Origin: a phage
DNA: 64,000 bases
Sequence record: PZ452581.1
Reading direction: 5' to 3' (one strand)
Below are positions 54,190 through 64,000 of this stretch, piece by piece. Numbering within the stretch: the first letter of the stretch is position 1; the number at the start of each line of letters is the position of its first letter. Position numbers and translations under genes: made by a program. The notes below the pieces were generated by a model, which was not told where the DNA came from, made no database searches, and saw only the letters and a program-made list of their open reading frames with translations.

Positions 54190-54252
54190 ATGAACCTCGT
54201 TCAATTAGTGAGATTTCTATTATATACCATCCGAATCTTAAAGTAAACAAGT

Positions 54253-54293: not shown

Positions 54294-57200
54294 ATGGCCG
54301 AGATTAAAAGAAAGTTCAGAGCAGAAGATGGTCTGGACGCAGGTGGTGATAAAATAATCAACGTAGCTTTAGCTGATCGTACCGTAGGAACTGACGGTGT
54401 TAACGTTGATTACCTAATTCAAGAAAACACAGTTCAACAATACGATCCAACTCGTGGATATTTAAAAGATTTTGTAATCATTTATGATAACCGCTTTTGG
54501 GCTGCTATAAATGATATTCCAAAACCGGCAGGAGCTTTTAATAGCGGGCGCTGGAGAGCATTACGTACTGATGCTAACTGGATTACAGTTTCATCTGGTT
54601 CATATCAATTAAAATCCGGTGAAGCTATTTCGGTTAACACTGCAGCTGGTAATGATATTACATTTACTTTACCATCTACTCCAATTGACGGTGATACTAT
54701 CGTTCTCCAAGACATTGGAGGAAAACCTGGAGTTAACCAAGTTTTAATTGTAGCTCCAGTACAAAGTATTGTAAACTTTAGAGGCGAACAAGTACGTTCA
54801 GTACTAATGACTCATCCAAAGTCACAGTTAGTTTTAATTTTTAGTAATCGTCTGTGGCAAATGTATGTAGCTGATTATAGTAGAGAAGCTGTAGTTGTAA
54901 CACCAGCGAATACTTATCAAGCGCAATCCAACGATTTTATCGTACGTAGATTTACTTCTGCTGCACCGATAAATATTAAACTTCCGAGATTTGCTAATCA
55001 TGGCGATATTATTAATTTCGTCGATTTGGATAAATTAAATCCGCTTTATCATACAATTGTTACAACATATGATGAAACCACTTCAGTACAAGAAGTTGGA
55101 ACTCATTCTATTGAAGGCCGTACATCTATTGACGGTTTCTTGATGTATGACGATAATGAGAAATTATGGAGATTATTTGACGGGGACAGTAAAGCACGTT
55201 TACGTATCATAACAACTAATTCAAACATTCGTCCAAATGAAGAAGTTATGGTATTTGGTGCGAATAATGGAACAACTCAAACAATTGAGCTTCAGCTTCC
55301 AACTAATATTTCTGTTGGTGATACTGTTAAAATTTCCATGAATTACATGAGAAAAGGACAAACAGTTAAAATCAAAGCTGCCGGTGAAGATAAAATTGCT
55401 TCTTCAGTTCAATTGCTGCAATTCCCAAAACGTTCAGAATATCCGCCTGAAACTAAATGGGTAACTGTTCAAGAATTAGTTTTTAACGGTGAAACTAATT
55501 ATGTTCCAGTTTTACAGCTTGCTTATATAGAAGATTCTGATGGAAAATACTGGGTTGTACAACAAAACGTTCCAACCGTAGAAAGAGTTGATTCTTTAAA
55601 TGATTCTACTAGAGCAAGATTAGGCGTAATTGCTTTAGCTACACAGGCTCAAGCTAACGTCGATTTAGAAAATTCTCCACAAAAAGAATTAGCAATTACT
55701 CCAGAAACATTAGCTAACCGTACTGCTACAGAAACTCGTAGAGGTATCGCAAGAATAGCAACTACTGCTCAAGTGAATCAGAACACCACATTCTCTTTTG
55801 CTGATGATATTATCATCACTCCTAAAAAGCTGAATGAAAGAACTGCTACAGAAACTCGCAGAGGTGTTGCAGAAATTGCTACTCAGCAAGAAACAAACGC
55901 AGGAACAGATGATACAACCATCATTACTCCTAAAAAGCTTCAAGCTCGTCAAGGTTCTGAATCATTATCTGGTATTGTAACTTTTGTATCTACTGCAGGT
56001 GCTACTCCAGCTTCTAGCCGTGAATTAAATGGTACGAATGTTTATAATAAAAACACTAATAATTTAGTTGTTTCGCCAAAAGCTTTGGATCAATATAAAG
56101 CTACTCCAACGCAACAAGGTGCAGTAATTTTAGCAGTTGAAAGTGAAGTAATTGCTGGACAAAGCCAAGAAGGATGGGCAAATGCGGTTGTAACGCCAGA
56201 AACGTTACATAAAAAGACATCAACTGATGCAAGAATTGGTTTAATTGAAATTGCTACGCAAAGTGAAGTTAATACAGGAACTGATTATACTCGTGCAGTC
56301 ACTCCTAAAACTTTAAATGACCGTAGAGCAACTGAAAGTTTAAGTGGTATAGCTGAAATTGCTACACAAGTTGAATTCGACGCAGGCGTCGACGATACTC
56401 GTATCTCTACACCATTAAAAATTAAAACCAGATTTAATAGTACTGATCGTACTTCTGTTGTTGCTCTATCTGGATTAGTTGAATCAGGAACTCTCTGGGA
56501 CCATTATACCCTTAATATTCTTGAAGCAAATGAGACGCAACGTGGTACACTTCGTGTAGCTACACAAGTTGAAGCTGCTGCAGGAACATTAGATAATGTT
56601 TTAATAACTCCTAAAAAGCTTTTAGGTACTAAATCTACCGAATCGCAAGAAGGTGTTATTAAAGTTGCAACTCAAGCTGAAACCGTAGCTGGAACATCAG
56701 CAAATACTGCTGTATCTCCAAAAAATTTAAAATGGATTGTGCAGAGTGAACCTACTTGGGCAGCTACTACTGCAATAAGAGGTTTTGTTAAAACTTCATC
56801 TGGTTCAATTACATTCGTTGGTAATGATACAGTCGGTTCTACCCAAGATTTAGAACTGTATGAGAAAAATAGCTATGCGGTATCACCATATGAATTAAAC
56901 CGTGTATTAGCAAATTATTTGCCATTAAAAGCAAAAGCTGCTGATACAAATTTATTGGATGGTCTAGATTCATCTCAGTTCATTCGTAGGGATATCGCAC
57001 AGACGGTTAATGGTTCACTAACCTTAACCCAACAAACGAATCTGAGTGCCCCTCTTGTATCATCTAGTACTGCTACGTTTGGTGGATCAGTTTCGGCAAA
57101 TAGTACATTAACTATTTCTAATACTGGAACGGCAACTCGTCTGATTTTTGAGAAAGGACCTCAAACTGGAACTAACCCAGCACAGACGATGACTATCAGA

Positions 57201-58163
57201 GTTTGGGGAAATCAGTTTGGTGGCGGATCAGATACAACGCGTTCTACTGTATTTGAAGTTGGTGATGAAACATCTAATCACTTTTATTCTCAACGTAATA
57301 AAGATGGGAATATAACGTTTAGCATTAATGGTACTGTGATGCCAATAAATGTTAACGCTTCAGGCACGTTAAATGCGAATGGCGTTGCAACATTCGGTCG
57401 TTCAGTTACAGCCAACGGTGAATTCATTAGCAAGTCTGCAAATGCTTTCAGAGCAATTAGTGGTGATTACGGATTCTTTATTCGCAATGATGCTGCTAAT
57501 ACCTATTTTATGCTCACTGCATCCGGTGATCAGACTGGCGGATTTAATGGATTACGTCCTTTGTCTATTAATAATGCATCTGGCCAAGTAACGATTGGTG
57601 AAAGCTTAATAATTGCCAAAGGTGCTACTATAAATTCAGGTGGTTTGACTGTTAACTCGAGAATTCGTTCTCAGGGTACTAAAACATCTGATTTATACAC
57701 CCGTGCACCAACATCTGATACTGTAGGATTCTGGTCAATTGATATTAACGATTCAGCCACTTATAACCAGTTCCCGGGTTATTTTAAAATGGTTGAAAAA
57801 ACTAATGAAGTGACTGGGCTTCCATACTTAGAACGTGGCGAAGAAGTTAAATCTCCTGGTACACTGACTCAGTTTGGTAACACACTTGATTCGCTTTACC
57901 AAGATTGGATTACTTATCCAACGACGCCGGAAGCGCGTACCACTCGCTGGACACGTACATGGCAGAAAACCAAAAACTCTTGGTCAAGTTTTGTTCAGGT
58001 ATTTGACGGAGGTAACCCTCCTCAGCCGTCTGATATCGGTGCTTTACCGTCTGATAATGCTACAATGGGAAATCTTACTATTCGTGATTTCTTACGAATT
58101 GGTAATGTTCGCATTATTCCTGACCCAGCGAATAAAACGGTTAAATTTGAATGGGTTGAATAA
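54294..58163 (+). CDS. 34: Long tail fibre proximal subunit (gp34)
   Basis: 1289-aa ORF with internal ~38-aa repeats (ATETRRG..IATQ...ITPKKL); length matches T4 gp34. Confidence 0.93.
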   Translation: MAEIKRKFRAEDGLDAGGDKIINVALADRTVGTDGVNVDYLIQENTVQQYDPTRGYLKDFVIIYDNRFWAAINDIPKPAGAFNSGRWRALRTDANWITVSSGSYQLKSGEAISVNTAAGNDITFTLPSTPIDGDTIVLQDIGGKPGVNQVLIVAPVQSIVNFRGEQVRSVLMTHPKSQLVLIFSNRLWQMYVADYSREAVVVTPANTYQAQSNDFIVRRFTSAAPINIKLPRFANHGDIINFVDLDKLNPLYHTIVTTYDETTSVQEVGTHSIEGRTSIDGFLMYDDNEKLWRLFDGDSKARLRIITTNSNIRPNEEVMVFGANNGTTQTIELQLPTNISVGDTVKISMNYMRKGQTVKIKAAGEDKIASSVQLLQFPKRSEYPPETKWVTVQELVFNGETNYVPVLQLAYIEDSDGKYWVVQQNVPTVERVDSLNDSTRARLGVIALATQAQANVDLENSPQKELAITPETLANRTATETRRGIARIATTAQVNQNTTFSFADDIIITPKKLNERTATETRRGVAEIATQQETNAGTDDTTIITPKKLQARQGSESLSGIVTFVSTAGATPASSRELNGTNVYNKNTNNLVVSPKALDQYKATPTQQGAVILAVESEVIAGQSQEGWANAVVTPETLHKKTSTDARIGLIEIATQSEVNTGTDYTRAVTPKTLNDRRATESLSGIAEIATQVEFDAGVDDTRISTPLKIKTRFNSTDRTSVVALSGLVESGTLWDHYTLNILEANETQRGTLRVATQVEAAAGTLDNVLITPKKLLGTKSTESQEGVIKVATQAETVAGTSANTAVSPKNLKWIVQSEPTWAATTAIRGFVKTSSGSITFVGNDTVGSTQDLELYEKNSYAVSPYELNRVLANYLPLKAKAADTNLLDGLDSSQFIRRDIAQTVNGSLTLTQQTNLSAPLVSSSTATFGGSVSANSTLTISNTGTATRLIFEKGPQTGTNPAQTMTIRVWGNQFGGGSDTTRSTVFEVGDETSNHFYSQRNKDGNITFSINGTVMPINVNASGTLNANGVATFGRSVTANGEFISKSANAFRAISGDYGFFIRNDAANTYFMLTASGDQTGGFNGLRPLSINNASGQVTIGESLIIAKGATINSGGLTVNSRIRSQGTKTSDLYTRAPTSDTVGFWSIDINDSATYNQFPGYFKMVEKTNEVTGLPYLERGEEVKSPGTLTQFGNTLDSLYQDWITYPTTPEARTTRWTRTWQKTKNSWSSFVQVFDGGNPPQPSDIGALPSDNATMGNLTIRDFLRIGNVRIIPDPANKTVKFEWVE

Positions 58164-58171
58164 GAGGTATT

Positions 58172-59287
58172 ATGGAAAAATTTATGGCAGAGTTTGGACA
58201 AGGATATGTCCAAACGCCATTTTTATCGGAAAGTAATTCAGTAAGATACAAAATAAGTATAGCGGGTTCTTGCCCGCTTTCTACTGCAGGACCATATGTT
58301 AAATTTCAAGATAATCCCGTAGGAAGTCAAACATTTAGCGCAGGCCTTCATTTAAGAGTTTTTGACCCTTCCACCGGAGCATTAGTTGATAGTAAGTCAT
58401 ATGCTTTTTCGACTTCAAATGATACTACATCAGCTGCTTTTGTTAGTTTCATGAATTCTTTGGCAAATAATAGAATTGTTGCTATATTAACTAGTGGAAA
58501 GGTTAATTTTCCTCCTGAAGTAGTATCTTGGTTAAGAACCGCAGGAACGTCTGCTTTTCCATCTGATTCTATATTGTCAAGATTCGACGTATCATATGCT
58601 GCTTTTTATACTTCTTCTAAAAGAGCTATCGCATTAGAGCATGTTAAACTGAGTAATAGAAAAAGCACAGATGATTATCAAACTATTTTAGATGTTGTAT
58701 TTGACAGTTTAGAAGATGTAGGAGCTACCGGGTTTCCAAGAAGAACGTATGAAAGCGTTGAGCAATTCATGTCAGCGGTTGGTGGAACTAATAACGAAAT
58801 TGCGCGTCTACCAACTTCAGCTGCTATAAGTAAATTATCTGATTATAATTTAATTCCCGGAGATGTTCTTTATCTTAAAGCTCAGTTATATGCTGATGCT
58901 GATTTACTTGCGCTTGGAACTACAAATATATCTATCCGTTTTTATAATGCATCTAATGGATATATTTCCTCGACACAAGCTGAGTTTACTGGACAGGCTG
59001 GGTCTTGGGAATTAAAGGAAGACTATGTAGTTGTTCCAGAAAATGCAGTTGGATTTACGATATATGCACAAAGAACTGCTCAAGCGGGACAAGGCGGTAT
59101 GCGAAATTTAAGCTTTTCTGAAGTATCAAGAAATGGCGGAATTTCAAAACCCGCTGAATTTGGCGTCAACGGCATTCGTGTTAATTATATCTGTGAATCT
59201 GCTTCACCTCCGGATATAATGGTACTTCCTACACAAGCATCGTCTAAAACTGGTAAAGTGTTTGGGCAAGAATTTAGAGAAGTATAA
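58172..59287 (+). CDS. 35: Long tail fibre hinge connector (gp35)
   Basis: 371-aa ORF; size and position as T4 gp35. Confidence 0.88.
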   Translation: MEKFMAEFGQGYVQTPFLSESNSVRYKISIAGSCPLSTAGPYVKFQDNPVGSQTFSAGLHLRVFDPSTGALVDSKSYAFSTSNDTTSAAFVSFMNSLANNRIVAILTSGKVNFPPEVVSWLRTAGTSAFPSDSILSRFDVSYAAFYTSSKRAIALEHVKLSNRKSTDDYQTILDVVFDSLEDVGATGFPRRTYESVEQFMSAVGGTNNEIARLPTSAAISKLSDYNLIPGDVLYLKAQLYADADLLALGTTNISIRFYNASNGYISSTQAEFTGQAGSWELKEDYVVVPENAVGFTIYAQRTAQAGQGGMRNLSFSEVSRNGGISKPAEFGVNGIRVNYICESASPPDIMVLPTQASSKTGKVFGQEFREV

Positions 59288-59318: not shown

Positions 59319-59326
59319 TATAAATA
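59319..59326 (+). promoter_or_regulatory. Late promoter TATAAATA for gene 36
   Basis: Exact TATAAATA about 24 nt upstream of the gene 36 ATG. Confidence 0.6.
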
Positions 59327-59349: not shown

Positions 59350-60015
59350 ATGGCTGATTTAAAAGTAGGTTCAACAACTGGAGGCTCTGTCATTTGGCAT
59401 CAAGGAAATTTTCCATTGAATCCGGCCGGTGACGATGTACTCTATAAATCATTTAAAATATATTCAGAATATAACAAACCACAAGCTGCAGATAACGATT
59501 TCGTTTCTAAAGCTAACGGTGGTACTTATGCATCAAAGGTAACATTTAATGCTGGTGTTCAAGTACCATATGCTATAAACAATACAAACCAAAGTGGTAT
59601 TTATCCTGGTAATGGAGATGCAGCTACTTTTGTTACAGCAAATATTGATATTGTTTCATGGTATGGCGTAGGATTTAAATCATCACAAGGATCTGCCGGT
59701 AGAACTGTAGTAATTAATACACGCAATGGTGATATTAGCACAAAAGGTGTTGTGTCGGCAGCTGGTCAAGTAAGAAGTGATGCGGCTGCTCCTATAGCAG
59801 CGAATGACCTTACTAGAAAGGACTATGTTGATGGAGCAATAAATACTGTTACAGCAAATGCAAACTCTAGAGTGTTACGATCTGGTGACACTATGACGGG
59901 AAACTTAACCGCACCAAACTTTTTCTCGCAGAATCCTGCATCTCAACCTTCACATGTTCCACGATTTGACCAAATCGTAATTAAGGATTCTGTTCAAGAT
60001 TTCGGCTATTATTAA
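59350..60015 (+). CDS. 36: Long tail fibre distal connector (gp36)
   Basis: 221-aa ORF; size and position as T4 gp36. Confidence 0.9.
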   Translation: MADLKVGSTTGGSVIWHQGNFPLNPAGDDVLYKSFKIYSEYNKPQAADNDFVSKANGGTYASKVTFNAGVQVPYAINNTNQSGIYPGNGDAATFVTANIDIVSWYGVGFKSSQGSAGRTVVINTRNGDISTKGVVSAAGQVRSDAAAPIAANDLTRKDYVDGAINTVTANANSRVLRSGDTMTGNLTAPNFFSQNPASQPSHVPRFDQIVIKDSVQDFGYY

Positions 60016-60023
60016 GAGGACTT

Positions 60024-63000
60024 ATGGCTACTTTAAAACAAATACAATTTAAAAGAAGCAAAACCGCAGGTGCACGTCCTGCTGCTTCAGTATTAGCCGA
60101 AGGTGAATTGGCTATAAATTTAAAAGATAGAACAATTTTTACTAAAGACGATTCAGGAAATATCATTGACTTAAGCATTTCCGCTGGCGGTAATATCAGT
60201 GGTAATATCACTCAAACTGGTGATTATACACAGACTGGAAAATTTAATTTAATTGGCCCGCAGATTATAGCAAGTGGTGGATATATTGAGTTTAATTATC
60301 GTACTACTGGAAGTGGGGCTTGGTCCGGTCAACACACTGCAAAGGCTCCAATTTTTGTAGATTTAAGCTCAGCTACTTCCACATCTGAATATAATCCTAT
60401 AATTAAACAGCGCTTTAAAGATGGAACTTTTTCATTAGGTACTTTAGTTTCTGAAGGTTCGTTGAAGATTCATTATATTGATGAAACTGGTCAATCTAAA
60501 TATTGGACATTTGCGCGCTCAGGTAATTTTCAAGTTGATTCTGGTAATTTATTAGTATCTGGTGGGTATTTAGTCGCTCAGAGTAATATTGAAACAAGAA
60601 CAGGTTCTTTGATTGGTCCATCTGTTGTAACTAAAAATATTTCATTTGATACGAAAGCGTTTGGACAATACGATTCGCAGTCATTAGTTCAATATGTTTA
60701 TCCTGGAACTGGTGAAACAAACGGAATTAATTACCTTCGTAAATTCCGTGCAAAATCTGGTGGTACGATTTATCATGAATTAGCTTCTGCACAAACCGGA
60801 AAAAGTGATGAACTGTCTTGGTGGACCGGTAATACAGCCGTTAATAAACAAATGGGCCTTCGCAATGATGGGTCTTTAGTGTTGCGACGCTCACTCGCAA
60901 TTGGTACAATTACAACAGATGAAAACATTAATAATTACGGCTCCACTGGAGCAATGGGTGAATGCTATATAGTCATTGGAGATGCCGCAACTGGTGTATC
61001 ATATAAAAGATCTGGTGTATATGATTTAGTTGCTAATGGTCTTTCTATCGCGTCTATTACTCCTGACAGTTTCCGTAGTACTCGTAAAGCATTATTTGGA
61101 CGTTCAGAAGACCAAGGCGGAACATGGAATATGCCTGGAACGAACGCCGCGTTTTTATCGGTTCAAACACAGGCTGATGAAAACACTGCTGGAGACGGTC
61201 AAACCCATATTGGATATAATTCTGGCGGAAAAATGAACCACTATTTCCGTGGTAAAGGAAAAACTAATATTAATACTCAAGAAGGCATGGAAGTTAACCC
61301 GGGTATTTTGAAATTGGTAACTGGCTCTAATAATGTAATGTTTTATGCTGATGGCGGTATTACATCTGTTAAGCAGCTTTCAATATATAACGGCATATAT
61401 TTAGCAGCTAATAATTCTACTGCTGGGCTAACATTCGCTCCAACTACTACAATTGATGGCACTAAGCAAATTTTGTGGGAAGGCGGTACTCGTGCTGGTC
61501 AGAATAAAAGCTATGTAACTGTTAAAGCATGGGGTAATTCATTTAACGCATCTGGCGATCGTAATCGTGAAACGGTTTTTGAAGTAGCTGATGGACAAGG
61601 ATATTATTTTTATTCACAGCGTGTGGCTCCAAGTGGCTCTGAAACTACTGGGCCTGTTGTAACCCAGTTCAATGGACAAGTTAATGCTAGAGGAAGTATT
61701 ATTACTGACGGAAGTTTTAAAGTTAATGGATTAAGCACTTTAGTCGGTAATGTTACCATGTCTAATGGTTTGTTTGTCCAAGGTGGTTCTTCTATTACTG
61801 GACAGGTAAAAATTGGTGGAACGGCTGATGCATTAAGAATTTGGAATGCTGAATACGGTGCTATTTTCCGTCGCTCAGAAAGTAATCTTTATATTATACC
61901 GACTCCTAAAGATGCTGGAGAATCGGGCGGTATAAGTAATCTTAGACCATTGATAATAGAACTGAACACTGGCACAGTTAAAATGTCGCATGATGTTCAT
62001 TTAGGAGATTCTGGATCTGGTACAGGACTTTTACAAGTAAGTAATAGTCTTAAAACTATTAAAATGATATGTCCAGTAACTATTAATGAACGCAATGCAG
62101 CGCTTACCCTGGATTCTCCTTCATCTTCTTCTGCTAATTATTTACAGGGTTCTAAAGCTGGAACTAGATCATGGTACGTTGGTCTTGGCGGCGCTGGAAA
62201 TGATTTATCTCTTTATAGCCAATCTTATGGACATGGTCTTGTTATAAGCGATAATTTCGTGTCAATCAGTAAACCTCTTAAAGTTGGAAATGCCCAACTA
62301 GGAACTGATGGTAATATTACTAGCGGTTCAGGAAACTTTGCCAACTTGAACACCACACTAAACCGTAAAGTTAATTCTGGATTTATTACTTATGGAGCAA
62401 CCGCTGGATGGTATAAGTTTGCAACAGTAACAATGCCACAATCCACTTCGACGGTCTTCTTTAAAATAGTTGGAGGTTCTGGATTTAATAGCGGATTATT
62501 CACACAATGTAATATTGCTGAAATTGTTTTACGTACTAGTAATGAAAGACCTGCTGACTTAAATGCTGCATTATACACAAGAACAATTGGAGCTGCATTT
62601 AAAGATATTGCAGTTAATAACGTCTCTGGAGATACATATGACATTTATGTTTCTGCTGGAACATATTGTAATCAATTAGCTTGTGAGTGGTCATGTACCG
62701 AAAATGCTACTGTTAGTGTTATTGGTATTAACTCATCTACACAATCACCTGTAGATGCTCTTCCAGATACAGCAGTTAATGGTCAAGTTGCTAATGTTCT
62801 TAATAACTTGGTTGATCGCGGTAAAGTTAAGCGTTATGAAGCCGATTCTGAACTAGCTATTAATAGCCCAACCGGTATTCGTATCAGAAGCAATGCCGAT
62901 AAAACTGGTTCTGTGGCTACAATGTTACGAAATGATGGCGGTAGTTTTTATATTCTGTTTACAGATAAAAATGCCACCGATGGCGCAGCAACTGTTAATG

Positions 63001-63806
63001 GTGATTGGAATAGTAAACGTCCTTTCGCAATTAACTTAACAACCGGCGAAGTGATGATGAATAACGGCATAGCTGTTCGCAGCGCTGCTTTATTCTATAA
63101 TAGCATAAACGTCAAAGATAATGGTTCTATTAACTTTGATAAATCAGGCGCTAACCCGAGAAATATGAGAATATTTCATGCTGGCGATGCTTCTCGCGGT
63201 AACCGTATTGAAATTGCCGATGAAACTAACTATATTGCTTACTTTGAAAAAACACCAGGTGGAGCTAATCGCTTTGTAGTAAATAATGCTACTGTAGCTG
63301 GTGTTAATCAAATGAATTCATTTGGTATTAACATCAATAACGCACTTGGTGGAAATAGTATAGCGTTTGGCGATAATGACACTGGTATTAAGCAAAATGG
63401 CGATGGATTATTAGACATATATGCGAATGGTGTACAGACTTTCCGTTTCCAAAACGGTGATTTGTACTCATACAAAAATATAAATGCTCCAAACGTTTAT
63501 ATTCGTTCTGATATTCGTTTAAAATCTAACTTCAAACCTATCGAAAATGCACTTGATAAAGTTGAAAAACTTAACGGTGTCATTTACGATAAAGCTGAAT
63601 ATATCGGTGGAGAGGCAATTGAAACTGAAGCGGGTATTGTGGCTCAAACGTTACAAGACGTTTTACCAGAAGCTGTCCGTGAAACAGAAGACAGTAAGGG
63701 TAATAAAATACTCACTGTTTCTTCTCAAGCCCAGATTGCTCTTCTGGTTGAAGCTGTGAAAACACTTTCTGCTCGTGTAAAAGAACTTGAATCTAAACTT
63801 ATGTAA
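60024..63806 (+). CDS. 37: Long tail fibre distal subunit (gp37), T2-type with C-terminal intramolecular-chaperone-like domain
   Basis: 1260-aa ORF; N-terminus MATLKQIQFKRSK as in T-even gp37; C-terminal ~110 aa (IRSDIRLKSNFKPIENALDKVEKLNGVIYD...KELESKL) resemble autocleaving chaperone domains of phage fibres. Confidence 0.9.
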   Translation: MATLKQIQFKRSKTAGARPAASVLAEGELAINLKDRTIFTKDDSGNIIDLSISAGGNISGNITQTGDYTQTGKFNLIGPQIIASGGYIEFNYRTTGSGAWSGQHTAKAPIFVDLSSATSTSEYNPIIKQRFKDGTFSLGTLVSEGSLKIHYIDETGQSKYWTFARSGNFQVDSGNLLVSGGYLVAQSNIETRTGSLIGPSVVTKNISFDTKAFGQYDSQSLVQYVYPGTGETNGINYLRKFRAKSGGTIYHELASAQTGKSDELSWWTGNTAVNKQMGLRNDGSLVLRRSLAIGTITTDENINNYGSTGAMGECYIVIGDAATGVSYKRSGVYDLVANGLSIASITPDSFRSTRKALFGRSEDQGGTWNMPGTNAAFLSVQTQADENTAGDGQTHIGYNSGGKMNHYFRGKGKTNINTQEGMEVNPGILKLVTGSNNVMFYADGGITSVKQLSIYNGIYLAANNSTAGLTFAPTTTIDGTKQILWEGGTRAGQNKSYVTVKAWGNSFNASGDRNRETVFEVADGQGYYFYSQRVAPSGSETTGPVVTQFNGQVNARGSIITDGSFKVNGLSTLVGNVTMSNGLFVQGGSSITGQVKIGGTADALRIWNAEYGAIFRRSESNLYIIPTPKDAGESGGISNLRPLIIELNTGTVKMSHDVHLGDSGSGTGLLQVSNSLKTIKMICPVTINERNAALTLDSPSSSSANYLQGSKAGTRSWYVGLGGAGNDLSLYSQSYGHGLVISDNFVSISKPLKVGNAQLGTDGNITSGSGNFANLNTTLNRKVNSGFITYGATAGWYKFATVTMPQSTSTVFFKIVGGSGFNSGLFTQCNIAEIVLRTSNERPADLNAALYTRTIGAAFKDIAVNNVSGDTYDIYVSAGTYCNQLACEWSCTENATVSVIGINSSTQSPVDALPDTAVNGQVANVLNNLVDRGKVKRYEADSELAINSPTGIRIRSNADKTGSVATMLRNDGGSFYILFTDKNATDGAATVNGDWNSKRPFAINLTTGEVMMNNGIAVRSAALFYNSINVKDNGSINFDKSGANPRNMRIFHAGDASRGNRIEIADETNYIAYFEKTPGGANRFVVNNATVAGVNQMNSFGININNALGGNSIAFGDNDTGIKQNGDGLLDIYANGVQTFRFQNGDLYSYKNINAPNVYIRSDIRLKSNFKPIENALDKVEKLNGVIYDKAEYIGGEAIETEAGIVAQTLQDVLPEAVRETEDSKGNKILTVSSQAQIALLVEAVKTLSARVKELESKLM

Positions 63807-63807
63807 A

Positions 63808-63825
63808 AGAGGGCTTCGGCCCTCT
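63808..63825 (+). terminator. Stem-loop AGAGGGC-TTCG-GCCCTCT after gene 37
   Basis: 7-bp stem with UUCG loop immediately after the gene 37 stop. Confidence 0.5.
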
Positions 63826-63836
63826 AAGGATTTTTA

Positions 63837-64000
63837 ATGGCAATTGTAGGTGTTCCTGGCTGGATTGGTGAATCTGCCGTGAATGAAACTGGACAACGCT
63901 GGATGGATGCTGCAATGAAAGCAGTTCGTGTTTCAGTTCCCGGTTGGATGAGCTCAATGGCCGGACAATCTAAAGAAGTATATTATAGCATTGGTGCTAG
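63837..64000 (+). CDS. 38: Receptor-recognising adhesin gp38 (T2-type), 5-prime partial
   Basis: ATG at 63837; translation MAIVGVPGWIGESAVNETGQRWM... resembles the T2-family gp38 N-terminus; truncated by the window end. Confidence 0.75.
   Translation, partial: MAIVGVPGWIGESAVNETGQRWMDAAMKAVRVSVPGWMSSMAGQSKEVYYSIGA

Follow-up and report, generated by a model that had tools for sequence, protein, structure and literature searches.

The 3' end of the DNA analysed here (a 64,000-nucleotide stretch of phage sequence, hereafter the window) reads as the part of a long tail fibre that recognises the receptor, in the form known from T2-like E. coli phages of the genus Tequatrovirus: the distal fibre protein gp37 would release a C-terminal Peptidase_S74 chaperone and the gp38 adhesin would then dock onto the exposed tip, an interpretation to which we give a probability of about 0.93. 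It is carried by the structure of the genes, the membership of their domains in known families, the conservation of a catalytic dyad, the identity to phages T2 and K3, and the adhesin architecture found in all close relatives. The arrangement itself is fully known already: it is the standard T-even fibre tip, the predominant and long-characterised form, established by genetics in the 1980s, traced through the T4 superfamily in a survey of 2011, resolved structurally in 2018 and present in hundreds of sequenced phages.

The window is a segment of a Tequatrovirus (T-even) genome and, taken as a whole, was ~96-97% identical at the nucleotide level over 24 kb to phages such as teqdroes, teqskov and G50; a nucleotide comparison with deposited phages returned no record identical to it. 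The closest relative was FriedrichMiescher/Bas39. A tRNA scan and an Rfam scan of the whole window gave no matches. A block of long-tail-fibre genes, all on the + strand, fills its last 10 kb:

54294-58163, + strand: g34, 1289 aa (Pfam Gp34_trimer, Gp34_2nd)
58172-59287, + strand: g35, 371 aa (Pfam ILEI)
59350-60015, + strand: g36, 221 aa (Pfam Phage_T4_gp36)
60024-63806, + strand: g37, distal subunit of the long tail fibre, 1260 aa and a stop codon (Pfam gp37_trimer, Gp34_trimer, Peptidase_S74)
63837-64000, + strand: gene 38 (tail fibre tip adhesin), 5' portion, cut off by the window edge after 54 complete codons

The gene order g34-g35-g36-g37-g38 is shared with T2 (AP018813; g37 at 150027-154052, g38 at 154083-154871), with t and asiA following g38 both there and in the relatives. 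Minus-strand open reading frames (ORFs) of 42-55 aa beneath positions 63400-64000 were considered as genes and rejected, since they lie wholly within g37/g38 coding sequence that is strongly conserved, and nothing supports them.

Gene 37 is an uninterrupted ORF of exactly 1260 aa, the length given in the first-pass annotation of this DNA. Over its full length it was 96.6% identical at the nucleotide level to g37 of FriedrichMiescher and teqhal, and it was mosaic relative to JLBYU22 and K3, as is expected for a fibre locus; the exact gp37 protein was absent from the assembly collection. The K3 protein (X04747, 1243 aa) was 82-100% identical to residues 641-1260 of the window's gp37 per 50-residue block and diverged in its N-terminal half, with 16-60% identity over residues 51-340, while T2 gp37 measures 1341 aa against 1260 aa here, the shaft being mosaic. 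In one relative, JK38, the g37 annotation is split. The trimerisation domains recognised by Pfam, gp37_trimer and Gp34_trimer, sit upstream of the chaperone domain, and the C-terminal part of the protein was resolved into the following features:

63333-63506, + strand: mature gp37 distal tip (~residues 1104-1161, ending ...APNVYIR1161), predicted gp38 docking surface
63504-63524, + strand: predicted autocleavage site R1161/S1162 (nt 63506/63507) and dyad, motif SDIRLK
63507-63803, + strand: intramolecular chaperone (Peptidase_S74) domain, 99 aa (S1162-M1260), predicted to be removed after trimerisation

The first-pass annotation had described a chaperone-like end of about 110 residues and proposed its alignment with S74-type chaperone domains. 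That alignment upheld the domain and shortened it: the Peptidase_S74 family ('Chaperone of endosialidase', PF13884) matched gp37 residues 1162-1219 over its whole profile (1-58/58) with a score of 56.5 bits (E 3.5e-15, against a Pfam curated cutoff of 22 bits) and with the Ser-x4-Lys dyad aligned, and counted from the aligned cleavage serine the domain comprises 99 residues, the extreme C-terminus of gp37. Furthermore, residues 1104-1258, within the last ~155, matched the gp37 construct of Salmonella phage S16 (6F45 chain A) at E 3.4e-11 to 3.9e-13, and the chaperone part matched the ICA domain of the eukaryotic protein MyRF (7DC3) at E 9.5e-4. Judged by their scores, the Peptidase_S74 match and the Gp38_N match described below are far beyond chance. 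For the last 160 residues of gp37, AlphaFold2 run on the single sequence gave a model with a mean pLDDT of 50.4 and a pTM of 0.36, too poor to judge the fold, in which a C-terminal helix over approximately the last 25 residues was placed at low confidence.

Both codons of the dyad, Ser1162 (63507-63509) and Lys1167 (63522-63524), are intact. S1162 aligned with the second serine of the S16 site DLNVS^SDRRIKK, at which cleavage was mapped experimentally (PMC7917993), and K1167 was likewise aligned to that site. The same two residues aligned with MyRF positions 587 and 592, the arginine between them also being intact and aligned, and MyRF S587/K592 are equivalent to S911/K916 of endoNF, the catalytic Ser-Lys dyad (PMC8326128; dyad also PMC3742443). 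From the alignment of S1162 and K1167 to the S16 and MyRF/endoNF sites, a cut is predicted between R1161 and S1162, which would free 99 residues. EndoNF, MEROPS S74 and the MyRF ICA domain belong to the same Pfam family and share the Ser-x4-Lys dyad as well as a cut directly in front of its serine. The passenger differs, being a T-even fibre shaft here as opposed to a sialidase tailspike in endoNF or a transcription factor in MyRF, and, unlike in those two proteins, the newly exposed end would here serve as the docking site for a second protein.

Over its last 99 residues the window's gp37 was identical (99/99) to both T2 gp37 and K3 gp37, and in T2 the motif SDxRxK stands exactly 99 residues from the end, as it does in the window. 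Over the last 165 aligned residues 154 were identical between the window and T2, the differences falling upstream of the cleavage site. Among the relatives the domain was near-invariant (97-99/99 in 11 of 12) while the upstream fibre varied, and this pattern of conservation in the aligned proteins indicates purifying selection on the chaperone domain. Proteolytic processing of T2 gp37 has been reported (Drexler, Riede and Henning 1986, as cited in PMC3157838), and from that report and the identity of the domain to its T2 counterpart we infer that it would be released autoproteolytically after trimerisation.

Alternatively, the S74-like domain might be a degenerate, non-cleaving remnant that is kept on the fibre, with gp38 docking elsewhere or not at all. 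Such a reading could draw on the length of the domain, 99 residues compared to the 113 of the intramolecular chaperone (IMC) of S16, a phage with a Salmonella host and of another genus, and on the fact that cleavage is here a prediction. The difference of 14 residues has to be set against an intact and aligned catalytic Ser, Lys and intervening Arg, against complete identity to the domain of T2, whose gp37 is reportedly processed, and against conservation that persists beneath a variable fibre, and we therefore regard a remnant as very unlikely.

Returning to a domain that is released, the end it would leave behind is the distal tip of mature gp37. The tip aligned with the S16 gp37 fragment that was crystallised with gp38 (6F45 chain A, from residue 19 onward), and 80-101 of 101 residues were identical between it and the relatives; a docking role would follow by analogy with the S16 structure (PMC6851490). 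Earlier, the module had been taken to begin at 63400; its identity stands, and its start lies further upstream only insofar as the docking tip (~1104-1161, from nt 63333) is counted as part of it. S16 (PDB 6F45, Dunne et al. 2018) presents the same gp37 architecture, with a beta-helical tip and an autocleaved IMC at an S/SDxRxK site, and its gp38, built from a beta-helix and a polyglycine sandwich and carrying three Trp prongs, is of the kind expected here, though S16 is distant in sequence, its gp37 C-terminus matching at E 3.9e-13 with several indels.

The ORF that starts at 63837 leaves the window after 54 codons (MAIVGVPGWIGESAVNETGQRWMDAAMKAVRVSVPGWMSSMAGQSKEVYYSIGA), and its first 23 residues read exactly MAIVGVPGWIGESAVNETGQRWM, the beginning that had been quoted for this gene. 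Residues 1-42 (63837-63962) constitute a Gp38_N domain (PF21721, 'Phage tail fibre adhesin Gp38 N-terminal domain'), matched over profile positions 1-40/40 with a score of 69.9 bits (E 1.8e-19), the curated Pfam cutoff being 25 bits. Together with an identity of 50/54 to T2 gp38, this match substantiated the proposed resemblance to T2-family gp38 adhesins. The stub contains three tryptophans, W9, W22 and W37, which aligned with those of S16 gp38 (6F45 chain D) by way of the gp38 of JLBYU22, a protein that differs from the stub by 1 residue and matches S16 gp38 at E 2.7e-49. In the S16 complex the three tryptophans are described as spaced 120 degrees apart, each set into a hydrophobic pocket of the gp37 trimer that is equivalent to the other two (PMC6851490). 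The gp38 body had rightly been placed outside the window, as ~80% of gene 38, including all glycine-rich motifs and hypervariable segments, lies beyond position 64000. An exact 56-nt pattern taken from the stub had no match in IMG/VR, and no exact match to this g37-g38 junction was found among deposited phages.

Between the g37 stop and the g38 start lies a 30-nt spacer, identical to that of T2, which holds the expression signals listed here together with the nearest upstream promoter motif:

59319-59326, + strand: TATAAATA, late-promoter consensus, lying 24 nt before gene 36, with no further exact copy up to gene 38
63808-63825, + strand: intercistronic hairpin AGAGGGC-UUCG-GCCCUCU, terminator-like, 7 pairs (5 G-C), UUCG loop
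63826-63830, + strand: gene 38 Shine-Dalgarno AAGGA, 6 nt before the ATG, read from the sequence

The hairpin had a folding energy of -13.4 kcal/mol (z -2.07) and is labelled a potential terminator in the records of K3 (X04747) and G50. Its tail is AAGGATTTTT, the U-rich stretch of which overlaps the g38 ribosome-binding region, and the segment directly 3' of the hairpin, AAGGAUUUUU, contains the g38 Shine-Dalgarno. In K3, too, a gp38 adhesin lies downstream, and the same hairpin, the gene 38 ribosome-binding site and the start codon are annotated; at the position equivalent to the Shine-Dalgarno the K3 record places an alternative rRNA binding site for gene 38. We take TATAAATA to be the T4-type late-promoter consensus, its function as a promoter being putative. 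The other exact copy lies at 54252, upstream of g34, and there was none between 59326 and 64000. Since no exact TATAAATA separates the 59319 copy, upstream of g36, from g38, the latter is probably expressed by read-through, with g36, g37 and g38 probably co-transcribed.

As a stand-in for the window's own continuation, the downstream locus was compared in the 11 closest deposited phages and T2. All 11 relatives carry, in order, g37, 30 nt, a gp38 of 261-264 aa, the holin t, and asiA on the opposite strand, and their first 54 gp38 residues were identical to the stub at 53-54 positions. Glycine runs separated by variable segments were present in the gp38 of all 11 and of T2, and the gp38 of three representative relatives matched Pfam GP38 at E 1.8e-69 to 8.3e-73, plus Gp38_N. 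Together with the stub, these comparisons strongly suggest that this phage, too, carries a gp38 adhesin, the integrity of which is assumed from the relatives.

Gene 38 might nonetheless be defective or replaced past the window edge, whether as a recombinant with a non-adhesin body or as a pseudogene. The body does lie outside the window, recombination is known to be frequent at the fibre locus, where gp37 is mosaic, and one relative (JK38) has the split g37 annotation mentioned above. Yet an intact adhesin of 261-264 aa follows the stub in every one of the 11 relatives with 53-54/54 identity, and in T2, and a lytic T-even phage without its adhesin would be non-infective, which makes a lost or replaced gene 38 extremely improbable.

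Behind their near-identical N-termini, the gp38 bodies of the 11 relatives fell into three groups, mutually 64-81% identical:

Group 1: JLBYU22, teqhal, FriedrichMiescher, JK38, SholemSchwarzbard
Group 2: RB18, TB004, G50
Group 3: ECP2301, SA21RB, Sf22

With at least three body types behind such similar stubs, the receptor of this phage is not readable from the window, and a prediction of the receptor from the stub was rejected on the same ground, namely that relatives with 53-54/54 stubs have three body types. The receptor of T2 is FadL; whether this phage shares it is not claimable from the window, the gp38 body lying outside. It is unlikely that the body combines its hypervariable segments, and hence specifies a receptor, in a manner unlike that of characterised adhesins. 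A tblastn search with the 54-aa stub found homologues in 857 phage records, from phages of Escherichia, Klebsiella, Shigella, Enterobacter, Yersinia, Salmonella, Citrobacter, Cronobacter and others, in agreement with the published view that the adhesin-capped fibre predominates over the T4 version (PMC3157838, PMC6851490).

The proximal and shaft parts of the T4 fibre, and the position of its locus, are homologous to the window. At the tip the two part ways, as had been proposed from the sequence: the window's gp37 matched the S74 family and S16 gp37, and the solved T4 gp37 tip structure (2XGF) was not among its PDB matches at E<=0.01. The literature describes the arrangement for T2, T6 and S16 and draws the same contrast (PMC3157838, PMC6851490, PMC7917993): in T4 the adhesin is the C-terminal domain of gp37 itself, whereas gp38, an unrelated protein, serves as an assembly chaperone and is absent from the virion (PMC3157838, PMC6851490), its sequence differing greatly from that of adhesin-type gp38 (PMC6851490). 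That the window should follow T4, with the gp37 tip binding the receptor and gp38 acting merely as an assembly chaperone, is extremely unlikely: several relatives' records do name gp38 'distal long tail fiber assembly catalyst', but annotation has transferred these names from T4, the gp38 proteins of the same relatives match Pfam GP38 'tail fibre adhesin' (E ~1e-70) and 6F45 chain D, and the window itself pairs a Gp38_N stub with an S74-bearing gp37 that lacks a match to the T4 tip.

For the T2-type module, we propose a mechanism that draws cleavage, docking and receptor binding from homologues, namely the genetics and biochemistry of T2 and the structure of S16. Three gp37 chains would fold into the distal half-fibre, with the 99-residue S74 domain driving folding and trimerisation from the C-terminal end and thereby nucleating and registering the trimer. 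Upon completion of the trimer, the Ser1162/Lys1167 dyad of each chain would cut R1161-S1162 and free the chaperone, the loss of which would expose a three-fold symmetric blunt end. One gp38 monomer would then dock via its N-terminal three-helix attachment domain, W9, W22 and W37 each entering a hydrophobic pocket, the three pockets being equivalent. For the gp38 body, a beta-helix and a polyglycine-II sandwich with hypervariable loops are expected, and these loops would attach to a protein of the outer membrane and determine which hosts are infected; docking of gp38 Trp prongs into gp37 and determination of host range by gp38 are both described in the literature (PMC6851490).

The analysis opens no new biological question, and its value is one of annotation. 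The gp38 of this phage should be labelled an adhesin and not, as in the mislabelled records of several relatives, a T4-style 'assembly catalyst', and prediction or engineering of its host range must use the hypervariable loops of gp38, which lie just outside the window.

By its sequence, gp37, the distal subunit of the long tail fibre (window 60024-63806, plus strand), is a mosaic of the sort typical of fibre-shaft recombination. Its residues 641-740 share 34-36% identity with gp37 of phage JLBYU22 and 86-98% with that of K3, and outside this segment the JLBYU22 protein is near-identical to it; across residues 51-340, identity is 16-60% to K3 and 80-100% to JLBYU22. The internal residues 467-658 (window 61422-61997) share homology with the trimerisation domain at the C-terminus of gp34 (Pfam Gp34_trimer) and match PDB 4UXE with an E-value of 1e-13; this module is common to both half-fibres, gp34 (proximal) and gp37. 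A separate observation concerns the hinge protein, in which residues 58-126 match Pfam ILEI at 35.9 bits (curated cutoff 27; E 1.1e-8):

58172-59287, gp35, hinge protein matching the Pfam family ILEI (interleukin-like EMT inducer / FAM3-type)

Among the relatives, the record of Shigella phage JK38 splits gene 37 (positions 1-2507 of locus L011) into two CDS that overlap, a possible sign of a frameshift or of an error in sequencing; the IMC domain of this phage, with 81 of 99 residues identical, shows the greatest divergence in the set. Three other relatives carry the label "distal long tail fiber assembly catalyst" on their gp38:

L002 2538-3329, gp38 of RB18
L007 2538-3323, gp38 of teqhal
L009 2538-3332, gp38 of SA21RB

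All three proteins match the Pfam GP38 adhesin family (E about 1e-70), and the assembly-catalyst role is that of T4 gp38, which is unrelated to gp38 of the adhesin type (PMC3157838; PMC6851490). The label on these adhesins is a propagated mis-annotation.

The T4-type late-promoter consensus TATAAATA occurs 18 times in the window (1-64000) versus 9.2 expected, a count reached in none of 100 shuffles, with copies just 5' of g34 (54252) and g36 (59319). No exact TATAAATA was found between g36 and g38, and so g38 is probably transcribed by read-through of a hairpin in the g37-g38 spacer:

63808-63835, plus strand, g37-g38 spacer with hairpin AGAGGGC-UUCG-GCCCUCU (-13.4 kcal/mol, cUUCGg tetraloop)

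Scans of the whole window (1-64000) for tRNA genes and Rfam families returned no matches. The spacer hairpin is stable, and its tail, AAGGAUUUUU, also serves as the Shine-Dalgarno sequence and spacer of gene 38. An identical hairpin lies in the g37-g38 spacer of T2, and the equivalent structure is labelled a potential terminator in the K3 and G50 records. Speculatively, this hairpin might set the gp37:gp38 ratio nearer to a 3:1 stoichiometry.
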